Below are positions 46,323-54,757 of a stretch of DNA of 64,000 bases, piece by piece. Position numbers and translations under genes: made by a program. The stretch spans positions 39,770 to 103,769 of the forward strand of contig CAZSNA010000002.1 in NCBI GenBank assembly GCA_964607825.1, in the 5' to 3' direction. Below the pieces are notes generated by a model, which was not told the DNA's origin, searched no databases, and was given only the letters and a program-made list of their open reading frames with translations. Within the stretch, counting starts at the first letter, position 1. Each line of letters starts with the position of its first letter. The DNA is from an uncultured Fibrobacteraceae bacterium. GTDB taxonomy: Bacteria > Krumholzibacteriota > Krumholzibacteriia > LZORAL124-64-63.

Positions 46323-48044
46323 ATGCCTCGTGGCTCCCATCTCGTCTTGTTTCTAGCCCTGTATCTGTGCATGTCCAGCGCGTTGTGCCCGGCCGCGGCC
46401 GGCGACGAGGTCGGCCGCGAGGAGGCCGCGGAGATCGCGCGTCGCTGGGCCGGGTCCGTGGCGGCCCATCAGGGGGACTGGGCCGGCGCCGCCGCGCCGA
46501 CGGTGGGCGGGATCGAGCCCCTGCGCGAGGACGGCGTCCTGCTCGGCTGGCGCTGCCGCATGGTGCCCGACGGCTGGGTGATCGTCCCCGCGCGTCGCGA
46601 GCTGGCGCCGGTGAAGGCCTGCGCCGAGCACGGCGACGGCGGCGGCCTGGCCGGACTGGTCCTGGACGACCTGCACGATCGCGTCGCGTACCTGGGCCGG
46701 GTCGCCGCGGACGCCCGGTCGCCGCATCCGGGCTGGGCGCGCCTGCTGTCGTCGTCGCCGGCGGCCAAGAGCGCCGCCGAGACCGTAGGTCCCCTGCTGA
46801 CGACCCGCTGGCACCAGGGCTGGCCCTACAACGAGCTCTGCCCGGACGGCGACGGCGGCCGCACCTTCGTGGGCTGCACCGCCCTGGCCGCCGCCCAGCT
46901 CATGCGCTACCACGGCTGGCCCGTGCGGGGCCGCGGCGAGATCGCCTACTGGTGGGACGGGGACCGCGGCTGCAGCGGCGACTCCCCGGGCGACACCCTG
47001 CGGGCCGACTTCACCGATCCCTACGACTGGTCGGCCATGGGCGAGGCCGTCGGGTCGGAGGATCCGCCCGAGAGCCGCGCGGCCGTGGCCGAGCTCTGCT
47101 ACGAGACCGCCGCGGCCTGCCGGATGGACTTCAGCGCCTGCGGTTCGGGGGCCTCCCTGTCCAGGGCGCGCGCGGCGCTCGTCGGCACCTTCCGCTACCT
47201 CGACGCGGCCAGGGAGCGCCAGCGGTTCCACATGAGCGACGAGGCCTGGTTCGACCTGATCCGCAACGACCTGGACCGCGGCCTGCCCCTGCTCTACGCC
47301 TCGACCATCCACACCATGGTCTGCGACGGCTGGCGCGAGATCGACGGCCTGCGCCAGGTGCACATCAACTACGGCTGGGGCGGCGACGGCGACGGCTGGT
47401 TCGCCCTGGACGCCATCGAGACCTCCCTCAACCCCCAGGCCGAACGCCTGGTCCACGACCTGCAGCCGGACACGGCCACGCCCATCGCGCTGGACGCCTT
47501 CGTCGCGGAGCGCATCCCGCGCGGCGCCCGGTTGACCTGGGAGGTGGGGGCGTTCGACGACGTGGACGGCCTGCACGTCTGGCGCGAGGACGCGGGCGGT
47601 TCGCGGTCCAGGCTCACCGACGAACACCTGATGATCCGCGAGACCATGACCTGGACCGACCCGTCGCCGCCCGTCGCCCGCGCCGAGTACTGGCTGCAGG
47701 CGATCTCCGGCGGAGGCGGCGCGGGCTGGCACGGGCCGGCGCCGCTGCCGCCGCTCGACGACGAGTCGATCCGCACCCTGCTGTCGCCGGTGGTCAACAC
47801 CGGAGGACCGGTCTCCACCCTGTCGCTGCGGCTCGCCCGGCCGGGACGGGTGAGGGCCGACGTGGTGGACGTGCGCGGTCGGCGCACGGCCAGGCTCCTC
47901 GACGAGCTCCGACCGGTGGGCGAGACCAACCTGAGCTGGAACGGCCGCACCGACGACGGGCGCTCGGCGCCCAGCGGGGTCTACCTGGTGCGGGTGGAGG
48001 TCCACGGGCGGGTCTGGACGGAAAAAGTCGTGCTGGCCCGTTGA
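46323..48044 (+). CDS. peptidase C10 (streptopain-like) family cysteine protease with FlgD-Ig/T9SS-type C-terminal domain
   Basis: ATG 46323. Signal peptide. Prodomain; TTRWHQGWPYNELCP; catalytic Cys context TFVGCTALAAAQLMRYHGWP; His context HTMVCDGW...HINYGWGG. C-terminal beta-sandwich ...GVYLVRVEV...VVLAR. Confidence 0.8.
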   Translation: MPRGSHLVLFLALYLCMSSALCPAAAGDEVGREEAAEIARRWAGSVAAHQGDWAGAAAPTVGGIEPLREDGVLLGWRCRMVPDGWVIVPARRELAPVKACAEHGDGGGLAGLVLDDLHDRVAYLGRVAADARSPHPGWARLLSSSPAAKSAAETVGPLLTTRWHQGWPYNELCPDGDGGRTFVGCTALAAAQLMRYHGWPVRGRGEIAYWWDGDRGCSGDSPGDTLRADFTDPYDWSAMGEAVGSEDPPESRAAVAELCYETAAACRMDFSACGSGASLSRARAALVGTFRYLDAARERQRFHMSDEAWFDLIRNDLDRGLPLLYASTIHTMVCDGWREIDGLRQVHINYGWGGDGDGWFALDAIETSLNPQAERLVHDLQPDTATPIALDAFVAERIPRGARLTWEVGAFDDVDGLHVWREDAGGSRSRLTDEHLMIRETMTWTDPSPPVARAEYWLQAISGGGGAGWHGPAPLPPLDDESIRTLLSPVVNTGGPVSTLSLRLARPGRVRADVVDVRGRRTARLLDELRPVGETNLSWNGRTDDGRSAPSGVYLVRVEVHGRVWTEKVVLAR

Positions 48045-48182: not shown

Positions 48183-49934
48183 ATGACTTCTCGCCCACTC
48201 GCCCGCCTGCTGCTGTTCACGGCGTTCGCCCTCATCGGTGCGACCGCGGCTTTCGCCGCGGCCGTTGACGACGACCTCGCCGGCCGCGTGGCGCGCAACT
48301 GGGTGCGCGCCGTGGAGCACGGCCTGGGGACCTGGGGCGGCCGGACCACGCCGATGGTCCACGAGCGGGAGCCCCTCCAGCGGGACGGTCGGCTGCTCGG
48401 CTACCTGTTCCGGGTGGCGCCGCGGGGCTACGTACTGGTGCCCCCCAGCCGCGAGCTCTCGCCCATCACCGCCTACAGCGAGACCGCCCACATGACCGGC
48501 CGGGAGCCCGAGGGGATCTTCGATTTCCTGGGCGACGCCCTGGCCGACCGCCTCGACGCCCTGGAGTCCGGCCTCGGCGTCGGCGAGCATCCCGCCTGGG
48601 ACCGTCTGGGCCTGCCCGAGGACGAGTTCGAGTCCCTCCTGGCCGCCAAGGACGAGGACTGGGAAGGCGCCGGCCCCCTGGTCACGTCCCAGTGGCACCA
48701 GGGCTGGCCCTACAACACGCTCTGCCCCGTGGGCAGCGGCGACGCCCGCACCTTCGTGGGCTGCACCGGCCTGGCGCTCGCCCAGATCCTGCGTCACCAC
48801 AACTGGCCCATGCGCGGCTACGGCAACGTGTCCTACTGGTGGGACGGCGACGCCGATTGCGGCAGCGGCTCGCCCGGCGAGGACGTCGAGGTCAACTTCA
48901 TGGTGCCCCACGACTGGCAACAGATGCCCGACGTCGTGGACTGGCTCTCCTCCCCGGAGGAGCAGTACGCGGTGTCCGAGCTCTGCTACCACGTGGCCGC
49001 CGCCCTGTGGACCGACTTCAGCACCTGCGGCTCGGAGGCCTCCCTGTCGCGCGCCAGCGCCACGCTCGTGAACCACTTCAACTACCGGTACGGCGCCCGC
49101 GAGCACCTCCGCTTCCGTTATCCGGACTCCGTCTGGTTCGCGATGATCCGGGGCGAGATCGACGCCGGCGCGCCGACGCTCTACGCCAGCACCATCCACA
49201 CCATGATCTGCGACGGCTGGCGCGAGGGGGAGGGGCTGCAGCACGTCCACATCAACTACGGCTGGGCCGGGGACAGCGACGGCTGGTACGCCCTCGACTC
49301 CATCGAGACCTCCCTCAACCCCTACGCCGAACGCATGGTCACCGGCATCCGGCCCAACGACACGGTGCAGACCCTGGTGCCGGAGTTCGAGGTGGAGCGC
49401 GACGGCCGCGACGCCAAGCTGAAGTGGGAGCTCGACACCCTCGACCCGACGACCGGCTTCCACGTCTGGTGCGGACTGGCGCCCGGCGAGATGGAGCCGA
49501 TCACGACGACCGCCCTGACCGGCGCCACCGATTACGAGTGGTACGACACGGCCGCACCGCGGGGGGACTGCTACTACAAGCTGGAGATGATCCCGCCCGG
49601 GGGCGGACTCTCGATATGGATCGGTCCGGAGGCCTGTCCGTCCGCCGTGGTGATCGACGACCAGATCGTGCCCATGCTGGGTCCGAACCCCTTCAACCCC
49701 ATGACCGAGATCCGCTTCGACCTGCCCCGCGAGGCCCCGGTCCGCGCGGAGATCTTCGATCTGGCCGGCCGCCGCCTGCGGACCCTCGTCGACGGCATGC
49801 TCCCGCCCGGTCCGCAGCGCACCGTCTGGGACGGTCGCGACGCCGCCGGGCGTCACGCGCCCTCGGGACATTATCTCCTGCGGCTGACCGTCGACGGCAC
49901 CCCGTCCGTCGCCAAGCTCATCCTCGCTCGCTGA
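48183..49934 (+). CDS. peptidase C10 (streptopain-like) family cysteine protease paralog with T9SS-type CTD
   Basis: Same motifs as the upstream paralog: TSQWHQGWPYNTLCP, TFVGCTGLALAQILRHHNWP, HTMICDGW...HINYGWAG. C-terminal GPNPFNPMTEIRFDL...GHYLLRL...LILAR. Confidence 0.85.
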   Translation: MTSRPLARLLLFTAFALIGATAAFAAAVDDDLAGRVARNWVRAVEHGLGTWGGRTTPMVHEREPLQRDGRLLGYLFRVAPRGYVLVPPSRELSPITAYSETAHMTGREPEGIFDFLGDALADRLDALESGLGVGEHPAWDRLGLPEDEFESLLAAKDEDWEGAGPLVTSQWHQGWPYNTLCPVGSGDARTFVGCTGLALAQILRHHNWPMRGYGNVSYWWDGDADCGSGSPGEDVEVNFMVPHDWQQMPDVVDWLSSPEEQYAVSELCYHVAAALWTDFSTCGSEASLSRASATLVNHFNYRYGAREHLRFRYPDSVWFAMIRGEIDAGAPTLYASTIHTMICDGWREGEGLQHVHINYGWAGDSDGWYALDSIETSLNPYAERMVTGIRPNDTVQTLVPEFEVERDGRDAKLKWELDTLDPTTGFHVWCGLAPGEMEPITTTALTGATDYEWYDTAAPRGDCYYKLEMIPPGGGLSIWIGPEACPSAVVIDDQIVPMLGPNPFNPMTEIRFDLPREAPVRAEIFDLAGRRLRTLVDGMLPPGPQRTVWDGRDAAGRHAPSGHYLLRLTVDGTPSVAKLILAR

Positions 49935-50616
49935 CCAGCTTGTATCCCACCCCGTGGACGGTCACGATGTGGCCGGGCCTGCCCGCGTCCGCCTCGAGGA
50001 TCTTGCGCAGGTTCAGGATGAAGTTGTCGACGGTGCGGGTGGTGGGGTAGGCGTCGTAGCCCCAGACGCGGTCGAGGATGACGCGGCGCGAGACGGCCTC
50101 GCCCGCCTTCTCCAACAGCACGCGCAGGATCAGGGCCTCCTTCTCCTTCAGCGTGAACTCGCCGCGGGGGTTGACCACGCTCAGGCGCGCCAGATCGATC
50201 TCGTTGTCGCCGAGGGTCAGGCGGGTCGGCGCGGACCGCTCGGTGCGCCATTCCTCGCGCCGGAAGATGCCCTTGATGCGGGCCAGCAGCTCGCGGAGGT
50301 TGAAGGGCTTGGTGATGTAGTCGTCGCCGCCGGTCTCCAGGCCGCGGACGCGTTCGTCGTCGCGGCCGCGGGCGGTGAGGAAGAGCACCGGCACGCGGTC
50401 GCCCGCGTCGCGGATGCGGCGGCAGAACTCGAAGCCGTCCATGCCGGGCAGCATCACGTCCAGCACGATCAGGTCGATGCCGCCGCGCTTCCAGAACCGC
50501 AGACCCTCCTCGCCGGAGTCGGCCAGCACCGGCTCGTAGCCCTCCAGCTCGAAGTTCAGGCGCAGCCCGTCGGCCAGGTGCGCGTCGTCCTCGACCACCA
50601 GGATCCGTCGCTTCAT
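49918..50616 (-). CDS. OmpR-family response regulator
   Basis: ATG 50616 overlaps the kinase stop as ATGA. Receiver ILVVEDDAHL...DLIVLDVMLPGMDG. Winged-helix C-domain ...TVHGVGYKL. Confidence 0.9.
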   Translation of the reverse strand: MKRRILVVEDDAHLADGLRLNFELEGYEPVLADSGEEGLRFWKRGGIDLIVLDVMLPGMDGFEFCRRIRDAGDRVPVLFLTARGRDDERVRGLETGGDDYITKPFNLRELLARIKGIFRREEWRTERSAPTRLTLGDNEIDLARLSVVNPRGEFTLKEKEALILRVLLEKAGEAVSRRVILDRVWGYDAYPTTRTVDNFILNLRKILEADAGRPGHIVTVHGVGYKLVSERG

Positions 50617-51695
50617 GTGCGTTCCTCTTCCCGGACGGGCAGGACCAGGGTGAAGGTCGCGCCGCGTCCCTCCTCGCTCTCCAGTTCGATGGCGCCGCCC
50701 AGGGCCTCGGCGTTGCGCTTCGCCAGGTGGAGGCCCAGGCCGCTGCCGGGCGTCCCGGCGTCGCCGCGGTAGAAGCTGTCGAAGATGCGGCCGCGCTCGC
50801 GACGGGGCACGCCGGGGCCCTCGTCGCTCACGCCCAGGCGGTGACGTCCCTCGCGCGTCTCCAGGGTCAGGCGCACCCGGCCGTCGCCGTGGACCACCGC
50901 GTTGTGGAGCAGGTTGCGCAGGGCCACGCGCAGGGCCCGGCGGTCGCCGTGGACCAGGCGGCCCGCGGACAGGTCGCGTGTCACGTCGGCGCCGCGCTCC
51001 TCCAGGAAGGGCCCCAGGGACGCCAGCAGGTCCTCGGTCTCCTCGGCCAGGTCGAGGGTCTCGGGGCGGCGGCACAGGTCGTCCTCGTCGCGGCTGAGGG
51101 CGAGGATCTGCTCCATCATGGCCTCGAGGCGCTCGATGTCGGTGGTCAGCGCGCCGTGGATGCGACGGCGGTCCGCTTCGTCCAGGTCGGTCCGCTCCAG
51201 GGTCTCCGTGTAGAGGCGGATGCAGGTCAGGGGCGTCTTGAGCTCGTGGGTGGCGCCGGCCAGGAAGAGCTCGCGGGCCCGCTTGAACTCGCGCTCCCGC
51301 CGGAAGGCCAGGGTCAGGATGGTCGTGCCCGCGATCAGCAGCGCCAGGAAGAAGATGCCCTCGCCCTGGAACATGCGGTTGCGGCGGCGGGCCTCGTCCC
51401 GGATGGCCCGGGTGACCTCGGGGTCGACGCTCACGGTCCAGCCGCCCCCGTCGGCCCGCTCGAAACGCAGGTGGGGATAGCTCTCGCCCAGGGCCGCCCG
51501 GGGGTCGCTCGCCACGCGTCCGTCCAGCTCCAGCAGGAAGACGGCGTGCAGGCGGTCGGTGGCCAGGCGCTGGAGCTGATACCGCTCGTAGGTCCGCCCC
51601 TCGCGGTGGATGTAGTAGGTCCACCACGCGCCCATGGCCAGGATGAGGACGACCAGGATCGCGTAGAGCAGTCCCAGGCGGCGATGCCACGTCAT
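50613..51695 (-). CDS. sensor histidine kinase (2 TM, HisKA + HATPase_c)
   Basis: H-box GATHELKTPLT, N-box LRNLLHNAVVHG, G-boxes DEGPGVP and GSGLGLHLA. Confidence 0.85.
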   Translation of the reverse strand: MTWHRRLGLLYAILVVLILAMGAWWTYYIHREGRTYERYQLQRLATDRLHAVFLLELDGRVASDPRAALGESYPHLRFERADGGGWTVSVDPEVTRAIRDEARRRNRMFQGEGIFFLALLIAGTTILTLAFRREREFKRARELFLAGATHELKTPLTCIRLYTETLERTDLDEADRRRIHGALTTDIERLEAMMEQILALSRDEDDLCRRPETLDLAEETEDLLASLGPFLEERGADVTRDLSAGRLVHGDRRALRVALRNLLHNAVVHGDGRVRLTLETREGRHRLGVSDEGPGVPRRERGRIFDSFYRGDAGTPGSGLGLHLAKRNAEALGGAIELESEEGRGATFTLVLPVREEERT

Positions 51696-51939
51696 GTCGC
51701 GTCCGATCGGGAGGGTCGGGGTTCGTTCACGGGCCCGAATATAGCAGCGCCTCGCGTGCGCGTCACCCGCGGGGGACGGCGCACGAGGCGACGGAGCCGG
51801 CCGTTGGCGCTTCGGCCGGGACGCGGCCGTCGGAATGCCGTTCCGAGGGCGGCTTTTCCGCCGGATCCTCGCGGGCCCGATCCTTGCCCCCGCGATTCCC
51901 GTTCACACGACGGGATCCATCGCACACGGGAGGTGCCCC

Positions 51940-52122
51940 ATGAAGGACGGACGAAGCGCGGAGGTGCAGGAGACGCTGGCGCGTCTCGGCATCGAGGAGG
52001 TGACCGAGCGGCTGGAGATCAGTCCGCTGCTGGCGAGCGACGACGGCGCGCTGGAAGACCCCACGCCGTGCTGCCACTGCGTCTGCAAGTACGTGCCGAT
52101 CGAACTGCCGAGAACGTACTGA
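51940..52122 (+). CDS. 60-aa Cys-rich peptide (candidate RiPP/signal precursor)
   Basis: ATG 51940 lies 4 nt after GGGAGGTG. The sequence is MKDGRSAEVQETLARLGIEEVTERLEISPLLASDDGALEDPTPCCHCVCKYVPIELPRTY. It has an acidic helical leader-like N-half and a CCHCVC core at 52069-52086. Its stop overlaps the next start (TGATG). Confidence 0.5.
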   Translation: MKDGRSAEVQETLARLGIEEVTERLEISPLLASDDGALEDPTPCCHCVCKYVPIELPRTY

Positions 52123-53264
52123 TGACGTCACGGAGCCGCGGGCGCGGCACGACCGCGCCCGCCTCCGGCGCCTCCGGACGCGAGAGCTGGGCCCTGTGGA
52201 CGCTGTGGGCTCTGAAGCCCGACGCCACCGCGGCCACCCTGTCGATCCTGCGCGCCCGCCGTCGCGCGCTGGCCGAACTGGAGCACCGGGTGCTGGTCGA
52301 GGGCCGCGGCGACGCGGCGCGACTGTTCGCCGACGCCCGCGCCGTGCTGGACGCCGAGCCCGGGCTGCGCCGCGGCGTGATCGCCACCCTGCACATGGGG
52401 CCGTACACCCTGGTGCCCGCCCTGCTCGTGGCCGCCGGCGATCGACCCGCCGTGGTGCTGGACGCCGCGGCCGAAGAGGCGATCCGGCCCCGCGCCGAGG
52501 CCCAGCGCCGCCGCCTGGGCCTGCCCGGCGAGGTGGAGTGGATCGTGGTGGATCGACCCCTGTTCGCGCGCGCCCTGTTGCGGGCCCTGCGCGCGTCGCG
52601 CCCGGTGGTGGTCTACCTGGACGGCAACCGCGGCGCCGGCGGTCCCGCCGCCACCCGCGACCACGGCCTGGCCTACGCCCTGCCCGGACGCAGGCTGCGA
52701 CTTCGCACCGGCCTGGCCCGCCTGATCGCCCGCACCGGCGTACCGGTCCACGGCGTCGCCCCGCGCTGGCGCGACGACGGGACCATCGACTGGAGCGTCC
52801 GTCGTCTGGGTCCCTGGTCCGACGGCGAGTCGCCCGAGCACATCACCCGCGATCTCTACGACTGGATGTTCACGCAGATCGACGCCACGCCGGAGCAGTG
52901 GTCGTACTGGGGGATGCTCGCCGCCTCCAGCGACTGCTTCGCGACCCGCAACCTGGCGGTGAGCGGCCCCCGCGACCACGCCCGGCGCAACGCCATCTTC
53001 CTGGACCACCTGGTCCGCCGCCCGCGGGACGCCCGGCTGGCGCTCACCGCGCGCGTCGAGGTCTGGGAGCCCGACGTGCTGGTCGACCTGGACCGCGACG
53101 CCTTCTACGGCGCGGAGGGCCTGCGCGACGGCGACCTCGACCTGCTGCGCGACGCCGAGCCCAGCCTGGCCGACCTGATCGAGCGGTGCGGCCGCGAGTG
53201 GGTCGGCTTCCACGGCCGCCGCCTCTACCTGCTCGGCCTGGCGGACCTGCGGACGGAGCCGTGA
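52122..53264 (+). CDS. LpxL/HtrB-like (lysophospholipid acyltransferase superfamily) acyltransferase homolog
   Basis: ATG 52122 is in frame inside a long shadow-extended ORF. ATLHMGPYTL resembles the H-box of LpxL. VVYLDGNRG...YALPGRRLRLRTGLARLIARTGVPVHGVAPRW resembles the D..FFG...T.G.A.LA...A.VVP block. ATPEQWSYWGML resembles APEQYMWLHRRFK. Confidence 0.65.
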   Translation: MTSRSRGRGTTAPASGASGRESWALWTLWALKPDATAATLSILRARRRALAELEHRVLVEGRGDAARLFADARAVLDAEPGLRRGVIATLHMGPYTLVPALLVAAGDRPAVVLDAAAEEAIRPRAEAQRRRLGLPGEVEWIVVDRPLFARALLRALRASRPVVVYLDGNRGAGGPAATRDHGLAYALPGRRLRLRTGLARLIARTGVPVHGVAPRWRDDGTIDWSVRRLGPWSDGESPEHITRDLYDWMFTQIDATPEQWSYWGMLAASSDCFATRNLAVSGPRDHARRNAIFLDHLVRRPRDARLALTARVEVWEPDVLVDLDRDAFYGAEGLRDGDLDLLRDAEPSLADLIERCGREWVGFHGRRLYLLGLADLRTEP

Positions 53265-54262
53265 CATCCCGGCGACGGATCATCCCGCAGCCCGGCGAGC
53301 GCTGGCTGCTGCGCGACGGCGGCCGCTGTTACGCGTTGCCGGCCTCGCTCGGGCGGCGGTTGCGGGACGGGGAGGCGGTGCCGGGGCTCGAGGCGGCGCT
53401 GGCGGAGACGACGGAGGCGACGGCCGGACGCTCGCTGTGGATCGCCTTGCCGCTCTTGCCTGCGCGGACGGTCGCCGCGCTGGCCTCCATCCTCGCGCCG
53501 GCCGCGTCCTGGGTCGGGCTGGCCGCGGCCGCGGTCGCGGGTGCGATCGGGTGCGCCTGGACCTGGGGGACGCCGGTCGCCGGCGTTCGCTGGCCGATTG
53601 TCGTGGCGGCCCTGCTCGCCGCCGGCCTCGTCCATGAGCTCGGCCACGCGGCGGCCCTGGTCCGCGGGGGCGGCCGGCCCGGCGCCGTCGGTGTGGGCGC
53701 GCTGTTCGTGTTCCCCGTCCTGTTCTGCGACGTCACCGCCGCCGCGTTGCTGTCACGCGCCGATCGGGCGCGAGTGGACGTGGCCGGGGTCGCCTGGCAC
53801 CTGGCGGTCGGGGGGGCGCTGGCGGTCGCGGGTCGCGGGCTCGACCTCCCCGGGCTGACCCTCGCCTCGTGGGGCGTCCTGGCCGCAGCGACGTGGAGCG
53901 CCCTGCCCTTCCTGCGCACCGACGGCTACTGGCTGCTCTGCGATCTGCTCGGACTCGAGGCGCTAGAATCGCCGGCGCCGGACGGGGCTGGGCTGGGTCT
54001 GCGGTACATGCTGGCGATGTGGCGGGTGGGGAGCCTCGTGTTTCTCGGGGTGATCGCGGCCGCGCTGGCGGAGCGGGGGTGGTGGTTGGTGGAGGCGTCG
54101 GAGGGGATGGGGGTGGAGGTGCGGGTGGGGATGGCGACGGTGGGGATTGGGCTCGCATGTCTCCTCGTGTACGGACTGGCGCGAAGATCCATCGCGATGA
54201 TCGTCGGGTTGCATAGGGATGTAGTTGAATTGTATGTACATAATAGGTACACTGGTACGTGA
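53261..54262 (+). CDS. polytopic M50-like (site-2-protease-type) zinc metalloprotease
   Basis: GTG 53261 overlaps the upstream stop (GTGA). Soluble N-terminal ~60 aa, then multiple TM helices. HELGH at 53633-53647 lies inside a TM segment. A later LPFLRTDGYWLLCDLLG (LDG-type) motif is present. Confidence 0.7.
   Translation: MTSRRRIIPQPGERWLLRDGGRCYALPASLGRRLRDGEAVPGLEAALAETTEATAGRSLWIALPLLPARTVAALASILAPAASWVGLAAAAVAGAIGCAWTWGTPVAGVRWPIVVAALLAAGLVHELGHAAALVRGGGRPGAVGVGALFVFPVLFCDVTAAALLSRADRARVDVAGVAWHLAVGGALAVAGRGLDLPGLTLASWGVLAAATWSALPFLRTDGYWLLCDLLGLEALESPAPDGAGLGLRYMLAMWRVGSLVFLGVIAAALAERGWWLVEASEGMGVEVRVGMATVGIGLACLLVYGLARRSIAMIVGLHRDVVELYVHNRYTGT
54225..54253 (+). promoter_or_regulatory. 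sigma70-like promoter with palindromic operator for brnTA
   Basis: TTGAAT (54225-54230), N17, TACACT (54248-54253). The perfect 10-bp palindrome TATGTACATA (54233-54242) lies in the spacer. This is an A/T-rich island inside the last codons of the M50-like gene. Confidence 0.35.
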
Positions 54263-54573
54263 CGGAGCCGAGGTTCGAATGGGATCGAAGCAAGGCCGTC
54301 CGGAACGAGGCCAAGCACGGGGTGACCTTCAGGGAGGCCGTGGGCGTGTTCGCGGACGAGAGCGGTCTGCTCATCCCGGATCCGGATCACGACAGGGGCG
54401 ATAAGCGGTATGTCCTGCTGGGGCTCGGCGCGTCGCTGCGACTGCTGATCGTGTGCCACGCCTACGACGACGAGCGGAACGTCGTCCGCCACATATCCGC
54501 ACGCAAGGCGACGCGAGCCGAGCGTGCCCAGTACGGAGTCCGATCGAATGCGCGAAAATTACGATTTCAGTGA
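54259..54573 (+). CDS. brnT: BrnT-family (DUF497) type II toxin
   Basis: GTG 54259 overlaps the upstream stop (GTGA). FEWDRSKAVRNEAKHGVTFREAVGVF...RYVLLG...LIVCHAY...RHISARKATRAER matches the BrnT pattern. Confidence 0.8.
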   Translation: MTEPRFEWDRSKAVRNEAKHGVTFREAVGVFADESGLLIPDPDHDRGDKRYVLLGLGASLRLLIVCHAYDDERNVVRHISARKATRAERAQYGVRSNARKLRFQ

Positions 54574-54757
54574 GGGCAAGCGGAATCCCTATTCCGGCCG
54601 GATCAAGAAGCAGATCACCATCCGGCTCGACGTGGGAACGGTCGAGTATTTCAAGGCGCTCTCCGAGGAGACCGGCATCCCGTATCAGACGCTGATCAAC
54701 CTGTACCTGCGGGATTGCGCGGCGGCCAAGCGCCGCCCGTCGCTGGAATGGGCCTGA
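54548..54757 (+). CDS. brnA: BrnA-family antitoxin (RHH/CopG-like)
   Basis: Start chosen at MRENYDFSEGKRNPY; an upstream in-frame ATG exists at 54524. ...ITIRLDVGTVEYFKALSEETGIPYQTLINLYLRDCA matches the BrnA pattern. It overlaps the brnT 3' end. Confidence 0.75.
   Translation: MRENYDFSEGKRNPYSGRIKKQITIRLDVGTVEYFKALSEETGIPYQTLINLYLRDCAAAKRRPSLEWA

Follow-up and report, generated by a model that had tools for sequence, protein, structure and literature searches.

Lipidation of ribosomally synthesised, post-translationally modified peptides (RiPPs) is known from several groups of natural products, including selidamides, lipolanthines, goadvionins, lipoavitides and aphotorhaptins, in which a ribosomal precursor is acylated by a dedicated GNAT-family acyltransferase (PMC8784127; PMC13647313). 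Known selidamides pair a peptide arginase with acylation of ornithine (PMC13647313). Daptides are made from short precursors with aliphatic cores, an invariant C-terminal Thr and an acidic helical leader motif (ELExMEAP), and their clusters encode an oxidative decarboxylase (DapB/DapC), an aminotransferase (DapD), a methyltransferase (DapM), an RRE-fused intramembrane leader peptidase (DapP), and MpaB, a fusion of an N-terminal domain and a C-terminal RiPP-recognition element (RRE) that acts as a leader-binding adaptor for a separate enzyme (Ren et al. 2023, PMC10036551). In epipeptides (YydF type), the protease YydH/LiaK is found next to the radical-SAM epimerase YydG. Acyltransferases of the PatA and LpxL/LpxM type, in contrast, are enzymes of envelope glycolipids. 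PatA, the mycobacterial PIM acyltransferase, acts at the membrane surface on lipid-linked acceptors and uses His126 with a distal acid, Glu200, rather than the HX4D arrangement, and the same has been proposed for HtrB and MsbB (PMC4792965).

Here, we analysed a stretch of 64,000 nucleotides (the window) from an uncultured Fibrobacteraceae bacterium (GTDB lineage Krumholzibacteriota; assembly GCA_964607825.1, contig CAZSNA010000002.1, positions 39,770 to 103,769 of the forward strand). It carries a small operon of a conserved Cys-rich peptide, a protein with a predicted lipid-A-type acyltransferase fold and an RRE-like domain, and a putative membrane-embedded protease. With moderate confidence, we propose that the operon makes a lipid-modified ribosomal peptide by a route that was not found in the literature and curated models searched. 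The features of the locus, in window coordinates, are:

51928..51935 (+), Shine-Dalgarno sequence GGGAGGTG, 4 nt (CCCC) before the precursor ATG
51940..52122 (+), precursor peptide gene (60 aa, MKDGRSAEVQETLARLGIEEVTERLEISPLLASDDGALEDPTPCCHCVCKYVPIELPRTY) with an N-terminal leader and a Cys-rich core
51976..52032 (+), leader recognition motif LARLGIEEVTERLEISPLL (aa 13-31)
52069..52086 (+), core Cys cluster CCHCVC (aa 44-49), the candidate modification site
52122..53264 (+), gene 2 (380 aa), a predicted LPLAT(PatA/LpxM-fold)-RRE fusion protein
52176..52934 (+), acyltransferase-fold domain of gene 2 (aa 19-271), His91 codon at 52392-52394 and Asp167 codon at 52620-52622
52968..53261 (+), C-terminal RRE-like winged-helix domain of gene 2 (aa 283-380)
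53261..54262 (+), gene 3 (333 aa), a divergent S2P-type intramembrane zinc metalloprotease and putative leader peptidase, HExxH codons at 53633-53647 and Asp221 codon at 53921-53923
49918..51695 (-), divergent OmpR/PhoB-type response regulator (49918-50610) and two-TM histidine kinase (50613-51695)

Every sequence feature listed in a sequence-only reading of the locus is present. The peptide stop TGA (52120-52122) overlaps the ATG of gene 2 (52122-52124), and the gene 2 stop TGA (53262-53264) overlaps the GTG of gene 3 (53261-53263). Gene callers on public contigs that carry the identical proteins call the same 60-, 380- and 333-aa genes. The sequence-only reading proposed a precursor peptide, a tailoring acyltransferase and a leader peptidase, with the peptide possibly sensed by the adjacent kinase. 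Every computational test that it suggested came out in favour, and none of its computationally testable grounds for rejection applied. The possibility of sensing by the kinase is neither supported nor excluded.

The small ORF is a real gene. A profile built from four peptides finds a matching ORF directly upstream of almost every gene 2 homologue, with 45 matches in related loci and E-values down to 1e-32. About 108 peptide clusters, all unnamed or "hypothetical", share the leader TLxRLG[IV]EE[LIV]xERLExSP[LI][LV], followed by a highly variable core. R24-L25-E26 are invariant in the family alignment, and an ELE[ED]RLE core occurs in the leaders of precursors from distant Bacteroidota and high-GC relatives. 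In 31 distinct leader sequences, third codon positions vary about six times more than second positions (7.58 against 1.26), which is the substitution pattern of a coding sequence. The motif [AG]GGAGGTG is found upstream of the precursor in 23 of 25 related intergenic regions, and the block is conserved in an alignment of 14 of them. In the core, C49 is invariant and C44/C45 are at least 90% conserved in the family alignment. All 108 family peptides have at least one Cys after the leader, and 99 have at least two. The leader motif (EERLExSP) resembles that of daptides, but the window peptide ends in Tyr and only two of 108 family peptides end in Thr.

Gene 2 contains the blocks ATLHMGPYTL, RTGLARLIARTGVPV and PEQWSYW. 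A Foldseek search with its predicted structure gave as top hits PatA (TM 0.66-0.68; 5f2z with E 5.6e-8, TM 0.66) and LpxM (5knk; 6.3e-7), and a profile of 124 distant relatives hits PatA at 3.8e-13 and LpxM at 3.5e-6. Gene 2 has no TM helix, like PatA, and has a Trp-rich N-terminal helix. However, it is not a lipid A or PIM acyltransferase orthologue. It falls below every curated acyltransferase threshold, with 15 bits against a cutoff of 22.3 for PF03279 and 23.5 bits against 209 for PRK07920, it has distinct signature motifs (HxG[PS]Y, YLDGNxGxGG and PEQWxxW), and it is never seen in an envelope operon in the loci examined. His91 and Asp167 are the only invariant residues across the 124 relatives, which have a mean identity of about 16%. 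His91 aligns with the catalytic His of PatA (in PHSGNWD) and of LpxM. The sequence-only reading noted that the acidic residue that normally follows the His is not obvious, and its absence is real: the position is T/G/S/A/N in the family and is not conserved in the distant relatives. Asp167 aligns with the Asp of the LpxM ILPDH motif and is the candidate for an acid located in a later block, as is Glu200 of PatA (PMC4792965), although the match to Glu200 rests on a profile alignment to LpxM and on sequence-block logic rather than on a structural superposition.

The C-terminal domain of gene 2, which was not recognised in the sequence-only reading, resembles an RRE. In the AF2 model it consists of one helix, four beta strands and three helices. 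A profile of the domain hits winged-helix regulators (1e-5) and the lasso-peptide RRE TfuB1 (6jx3_B; E 0.008), and Pfam PqqD matches 3 of 27 members. A relative weakly matches the lasso PqqD model and the N-terminal RRE region of the daptide peptidase model. Support for the assignment is moderate and does not include a hit at a curated threshold. The organization is reminiscent of MpaB, in which the RRE starts after residue 266, compared with about residue 280 here. This precedent raises the possibility that gene 2 does not acylate the peptide but is an adaptor or chaperone that holds the leader and hands the precursor to the membrane protease. The product would then be an unmodified linear Cys-rich peptide, perhaps a metal-binding, redox-active or disulfide-bonded signal or bacteriocin. 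Consistent with this, the canonical HX4(D/E) acid is missing, three to five clustered Cys residues would suit metal binding, and the window operon has no acyl-donor genes. We consider it unlikely, since an inert scaffold would not be expected to keep His91 and Asp167 invariant, and G93, G168, N169, G171, W260 and W263 at 90% or more, across such distant relatives. Furthermore, HHpred gave no annotation for the N-terminal domain of MpaB, such that homology with it is not established. Gene 2 does not hit any daptide model.

Gene 3 is polytopic by hydropathy, with HELGH at residues 125-129 at the end of a hydrophobic helix and TDGYW at 220-224. Its best named hit is the daptide leader peptidase (NF041824 daptide_HExxH, 2.5e-22), followed by YydH/LiaK (NF058609, 4.9e-7). 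At 79.6 bits against a cutoff of 300, it is related to the daptide peptidase but is not an equivalog. H125, E126, H129, P216, D221 and G222 are invariant, and a profile of the family hits MjS2P (3b4r) at 3.7e-5, aligning these motifs to H54, E55, H58 and the PMDG motif. In the AF2 model (pLDDT 90.5), HExxH lies in a TM helix and is followed by a beta-hairpin, two helices and a PxxxxDG motif, as in site-2 proteases (M50: MjS2P, RseP, SpoIVFB). There are no PDZ or CBS domains, but a short N-terminal beta-beta-beta-alpha-alpha module instead. Membership of the site-2 proteases rests on the profile hit and the motifs, as there was no Pfam hit (including PF02163) at E<=1 and Foldseek found no PDB hit with E<0.7.

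The peptide, gene 2 and gene 3 are adjacent in all related loci with enough flanking DNA, down to 37% identity for gene 2. The same holds in most sampled distant relatives from other phyla, although one, locus L061, lacks the protease. Some organisms fuse genes 3 and 2, and single proteins of 786-836 aa combine RRE, HExxH protease, LPLAT (lysophospholipid acyltransferase superfamily: LpxL/LpxM/PatA) and RRE (proteins P0057, P0076 and P0090). The window operon itself has no fatty-acyl-AMP ligase (FAAL), ACP, exporter or immunity gene. Within +/-10 kb there are no daptide decarboxylase, aminotransferase or methyltransferase genes and no GNAT gene was called, and the only radical-SAM gene nearby is HemN in the heme operon. 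The system is not a daptide. In contrast to the window operon, relatives with the ELE[ED]RLE leaders carry FAAL plus ACP, or a FAAL-ACAD-ACP fusion, next to two LPLAT-RRE genes (loci L057 and L059). Distant relatives also carry an arginase-family gene, as in ornithine-acylating selidamides (PMC13647313).

The two-component system is adjacent to the trio in about 21 of about 31 loci with enough upstream flank, but is absent from whole sub-clades, and its regulator is a generic, highly conserved OmpR/PhoB-type protein. It could be argued that the small protein is not a natural product but a substrate or regulator in a circuit of regulated intramembrane proteolysis or envelope-lipid remodelling controlled by this system, with gene 2 acting on a lipid. 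S2P proteases classically work in signalling, and gene 2 has the predicted fold of envelope glycolipid acyltransferases. This appears very unlikely in view of the RRE-like domain, the leader and hypervariable core of the peptide, and the relationship of gene 3 to RiPP leader peptidases. In addition, some loci carry several precursor copies (L046-L048, and at least 8 in L029), the trio occurs without the two-component system, and relatives sit with ABC transporters and CPBP-type immunity-like genes.

Taken together, our favoured model, which we consider somewhat more likely than not, is that of a minimal three-gene RiPP operon. The precursor would bind through its conserved leader (LGIEEVxERLE) to the RRE-like domain of gene 2, and the PatA/LpxL-fold domain would transfer a fatty acyl group from a housekeeping acyl-ACP or acyl-CoA to a nucleophile in the core, using a His91/Asp167 charge relay. 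The acceptor is most likely a Cys thiol, possibly followed by a shift to a neighbouring amine, or a Lys, although a thioester on Cys would be an unusual end product. The now lipophilic precursor would reach the membrane, where gene 3 would remove the leader and release a small lipopeptide at or across the membrane. No modified product has been observed, and acyl transfer is inferred from the fold, the invariant His/Asp pair and the FAAL/ACP genes in relatives; the acceptor residue and the order of steps are likewise inferred. Alternatively, gene 2 may perform a different acyl-type transfer, such as attaching the peptide to a membrane lipid or glycolipid, forming an intramolecular thioester or thiolactone through Cys, or transferring a short or unusual acyl group. 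Cys is the only universally conserved core residue, and L061 pairs peptide and LPLAT-like genes with a LytS/LytTR system, as in agr, and encodes a peptide ending in CDFVPL, which recalls thiolactone autoinducers. This alternative is unlikely, as the Cys cluster in the window family is followed by 11 or more residues rather than a short AIP-like tail, and the FAAL(-ACAD)-ACP neighbours in relatives point to ordinary fatty acyl donors.

One possibility, about as likely as not, is that the operon is the minimal form of a widespread RiPP class, not found in the literature or curated models searched, in which an RRE-fused PatA/LpxL-fold acyltransferase lipidates Cys-containing core peptides and is physically coupled to an S2P-type intramembrane leader peptidase. 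A review-style introduction from October 2026 lists every known lipidated RiPP as GNAT-dependent, and this would be the first ribosomal lipopeptide route that does not use a GNAT. It might also be a small-peptide counterpart of protein S- or N-palmitoylation. If gene 2 acylates its peptide, it defines a new enzyme family for ribosomal lipopeptide biosynthesis and would be a new leader-programmable lipidation tool for peptide engineering. It would also link RiPP maturation mechanistically to the membrane, through an acyltransferase and intramembrane protease pair that has repeatedly been fused in nature. The enzyme family comprises about 650 protein clusters at 50% identity, and the ELE[ED]RLE leader together with the HxG[PS]Y and YLDGNxGxGG motifs offers a simple handle for mining it. 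Members occur in Krumholzibacteriota/Latescibacterota-like lineages, in high-GC metagenome contigs of unknown taxonomy, and in Bacteroidota, including the cultured, tractable Neolewinella aurantiaca SSH13 and Elizabethkingia meningoseptica WHH. The arginase and FAAL/ACP genes of relatives suggest more elaborate products. For the uncultured FCB-group lineages that carry the window-type operon, the product may be a conserved membrane-associated or signalling lipopeptide of unknown role.

The organization of the region is exactly as described in the sequence-only reading: a small ORF with a strong ribosome-binding site, followed by two overlapping genes and accompanied by a divergent two-component system (TCS). 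The features of the operon and its surroundings are as follows.

46323-48044 and 48183-49934 (+), two tandem Peptidase_C10 (streptopain-like) paralogues, the second with a FlgD_Ig-type C-terminal domain
49918-50610, response regulator, transcribed divergently from the trio
50613-51695, histidine kinase, transcribed divergently from the trio
51696-51939, intergenic region shared by the TCS and the trio
51928-51935, GGGAGGTG, four bases before an ATG at 51940
51940-52122, ORF encoding a 60-aa peptide, the TGA of which shares one base with the ATG of gene 2
52122-53264, gene 2 (380 aa), containing ATLHMGPYTL, RTGLARLIARTGVPV and PEQWSYW, the TGA of which overlaps the GTG of gene 3
53261-54262, gene 3 (333 aa), containing HELGH and TDGYW
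54205-54757 (+), BrnT/BrnA toxin-antitoxin pair, in which the BrnT GTG overlaps the gene 3 stop (GTGA)
54761 to about 61800 (-), heme biosynthesis operon comprising glutamyl-tRNA reductase, a CcsA-like protein, protoporphyrinogen oxidase, ferrochelatase, HemN and UroD

Gene callers applied to public contigs with identical proteins call the same three genes. The operon itself has no FAAL, ACP, exporter or immunity gene. A C10 peptidase gene is conserved upstream of the TCS in many related loci and may thus belong to the same conserved neighbourhood. The last ~45 nt of gene 3 are unusually AT-rich for this high-GC sequence, and BrnT also follows gene 3 in two of the related loci (L005 and L006).

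The 60-aa peptide is a real and conserved precursor. Gene 2 has only 14 close relatives among 5.8 billion clustered proteins, and scans of species-representative genomes and of metagenomes returned about 50 loci. The closest relatives come from uncultured FCB-group MAGs, the record titles of which read Krumholzibacteriia, Latescibacterota and “uncultured Fibrobacteraceae”. A profile built from four peptides finds a matching small ORF directly upstream of almost every gene 2 homologue, with 45 matches in related loci, 38 of which are distinct in sequence. A database search with the peptide alignment returns 108 clusters, all unnamed or “hypothetical”. No curated family was found with Pfam and NCBIfam for the 60-aa peptide or with NCBIfam for the precursors of eight relatives, the only hit being a meaningless match (E 0.29) to a daptide precursor model. 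All the peptides share the leader TLxRLG[IV]EE[LIV]xERLExSP[LI][LV], in which R24, L25 and E26 are invariant. The leader is followed by an acidic, Gly-rich spacer of variable length and then by a highly variable core. Every one of the 108 peptides has at least one Cys after the leader and 99 have two or more, typically in clusters such as CCxCxC, CCxxxCxC, CxCxCxC or CCSCK. Across 31 distinct leader DNA sequences, variation is concentrated at third codon positions (7.58, against 1.26 at second positions) and synonymous codon differences outnumber non-synonymous ones. This is the leader/core architecture of a RiPP precursor.

Gene 2 is predicted to be an LPLAT-fold enzyme fused to an RRE-like domain. 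Curated models barely detect it: PF03279 gives E 0.014 and the PIM acyltransferase model PRK07920 gives 2.4e-5, both far below their cutoffs, and the source names of relatives are only “lauroyl/myristoyl acyltransferase” or “hypothetical”. In an AlphaFold2 model with a mean pLDDT of 79.8, residues 19-271 match PatA (E 5.6e-8, TM 0.66-0.68) and LpxM in the PDB. By sequence, a profile of the close family did not hit PatA or LpxM in the PDB. An exhaustive profile search finds 650 clusters at 50% identity with E<=1e-3, of which about 20 belong to the subfamily of gene 2 itself. In an alignment of 124 of these proteins, at about 16% mean column identity, the only invariant columns are His91 and Asp167, while G93, G168, N169, G171, G197, P208, W260 and W263 are at least 90% conserved. 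The profile of these 124 members hits PatA at 3.8e-13 and LpxM at 3.5e-6, with His91 aligned to their catalytic His and Asp167 aligned to the Asp of the LpxM “ILPDH” motif. The sequence-only reading noted that the acidic residue that normally follows the His is not obvious, and it is indeed missing. PatA itself, however, catalyses through His126 and a distal Glu200, and its authors propose that HtrB, MsbB and PatA all use a block-3 acid (PMC4792965). Although the match of Asp167 to PatA Glu200 is not confirmed structurally, an invariant His/Asp pair at these positions argues for a working active site. Gene 2 has no predicted TM helix. Its residues 283-380 fold in the model as one helix, four strands and then three helices. 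A profile of this region hits winged-helix regulators and the lasso-peptide RRE TfuB1 (E 0.008 over nearly its full length), three of 27 members hit Pfam PqqD, and a relative weakly hits both the lasso PqqD model and the N-terminal RRE region of the daptide peptidase model.

Gene 3 encodes a divergent S2P-type protease and putative leader peptidase. Pfam finds nothing, whereas NCBIfam gives the daptide intramembrane metalloprotease at 2.5e-22 and the YydH/LiaK epipeptide protease at 4.9e-7, both below the equivalog cutoffs. H125, E126, H129, P216, D221 and G222 are invariant. The AF2 model is confident (pLDDT 90.5) and shows a short N-terminal module of three strands and two helices, followed by the S2P core order of an HExxH helix, a beta-hairpin, two helices and the PxxxxDG motif. 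Despite this confidence, Foldseek finds no PDB match for the model, and S2P membership therefore rests on the alignment of the family profile with M. jannaschii S2P (3b4r, 3.7e-5), in which both zinc-ligand motifs are in register.

The peptide, gene 2 and gene 3 are adjacent and in the same order in every related locus with enough flank, and this holds down to 37% identity for gene 2. One genome (MAG JADJYS01) carries two copies of the locus, L009 and L028, the second of which looks degraded, with only partial gene 2 and TCS matches and no clean precursor ORF. Three representative proteins of 786-836 aa (P0057, P0076 and P0090) fuse an RRE, the HExxH protease, the LPLAT domain and a second RRE in one chain. 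One such fusion, in locus L058 (7818-10442), lies behind a 50-aa ORF that has a different, Cys-free core, next to ABC-transporter and Rce1/CPBP-like genes. Distant relatives keep an ELE[ED]RLE leader and a short Arg/Cys core such as RCDRxxC, GRCVCRNN or DRCLCR. They occur in Neolewinella, Lewinella, Elizabethkingia, marine metagenome contigs and high-GC contigs of unknown taxonomy, and combine the S2P and LPLAT-RRE genes with an arginase-family gene. In the Bacteroidota clusters (L029 900-8855, Neolewinella aurantiaca SSH13; L031 6444-10064, Elizabethkingia meningoseptica WHH; L053-L055; L060), one to eight or more tandem precursors of the form …ELE[ED]RLE[TM]VQLA…RCDRxxC are found with an RRE-S2P protease, an LPLAT-RRE gene and an arginase-family gene with an N-terminal extension. 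These are cultured, tractable hosts of the same enzyme pair. Two high-GC clusters (L057 3073-12870; L059 3068-12947) have a precursor (core GRCVCRNN or DRCLCRIEAEK), an S2P protease, an arginase, two LPLAT-RRE genes, a 252-aa membrane protein, and a fatty-acyl-AMP ligase (FAAL) with an ACP, which in L059 take the form of a single FAAL-acyl-CoA-dehydrogenase-ACP protein of 1261 aa. The presence of FAAL and ACP is the strongest indirect evidence that the family handles fatty acyl groups. In a different arrangement that resembles agr, a 48-aa ORF ending in …PKCDFVPL (L061 7761-10876) is followed by an LPLAT-like gene with no adjacent protease, and then by a LytS-type kinase and a LytTR regulator.

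From these comparisons, and in the absence of experimental data, we consider the following sequence of events most likely, with moderate confidence. The RRE docks the leader, the LPLAT domain transfers an acyl chain from a housekeeping acyl-ACP or acyl-CoA to the core, and the S2P-type protease then removes the leader at the membrane. The acceptor is most plausibly a Cys, the only universally conserved core residue, but a shift to an adjacent amine is possible, as is acylation of the Lys that often follows the last Cys. Acyl transfer, the acceptor, the order of steps and the cleavage site are all inferred. The main alternative is that gene 2 is only a leader-binding adaptor, like MpaB in daptides. 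The invariant His/Asp pair and the FAAL/ACP neighbours argue against this possibility. Homology of gene 2 with MpaB was not established, and HHpred gave no annotation for the MpaB N-domain.

The TCS is adjacent in roughly two thirds of the loci with enough upstream flank, but this adjacency is limited to certain clades and the TCS is absent from whole sub-clades with other core types. The regulator is 72-83% identical across loci where gene 2 is only 37-74% identical, and both TCS proteins give only generic PhoR/PnpS- and PhoB/MtrA-like sub-threshold hits in NCBIfam. A promoter and terminator scan found only the TCS promoter on the minus strand. K-mer and alignment analysis of 25 intergenic regions revealed the RBS, the conserved TCS promoter (GTGACG-17-TATATT on the minus strand) and one further conserved block (GGGYCCnnnnnTTGC) about 60 nt upstream of the precursor RBS, which could be a promoter or operator for the trio. 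No clear response-regulator repeat was found. A sensing link, as suggested in the sequence-only reading, or a regulatory link is possible but unsupported.

No NCBIfam model covers gene 2 or the precursors, and no paper in the library searched links an LPLAT to a RiPP. Neither a RiPP with a lipid A or lysophospholipid acyltransferase nor one with FAAL plus arginase was found there, and the combination of an RRE, a site-2 protease and an acyltransferase led only to the daptide paper. A paper from October 2026 lists all lipidated RiPPs as GNAT-dependent. Membership of the daptides, epipeptides and selidamides was rejected on defining features. With respect to daptides, there is no C-terminal Thr and no decarboxylase, aminotransferase or methyltransferase, and with respect to GNAT-lipidated RiPPs, there is no GNAT. 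The system also fails the curated thresholds for lipid A and PIM acyltransferases. It works like a daptide cluster in its logic of a leader, an X-RRE protein and an S2P peptidase, and like GNAT-lipidated RiPPs in its presumed outcome. We therefore regard it as a candidate new RiPP class.
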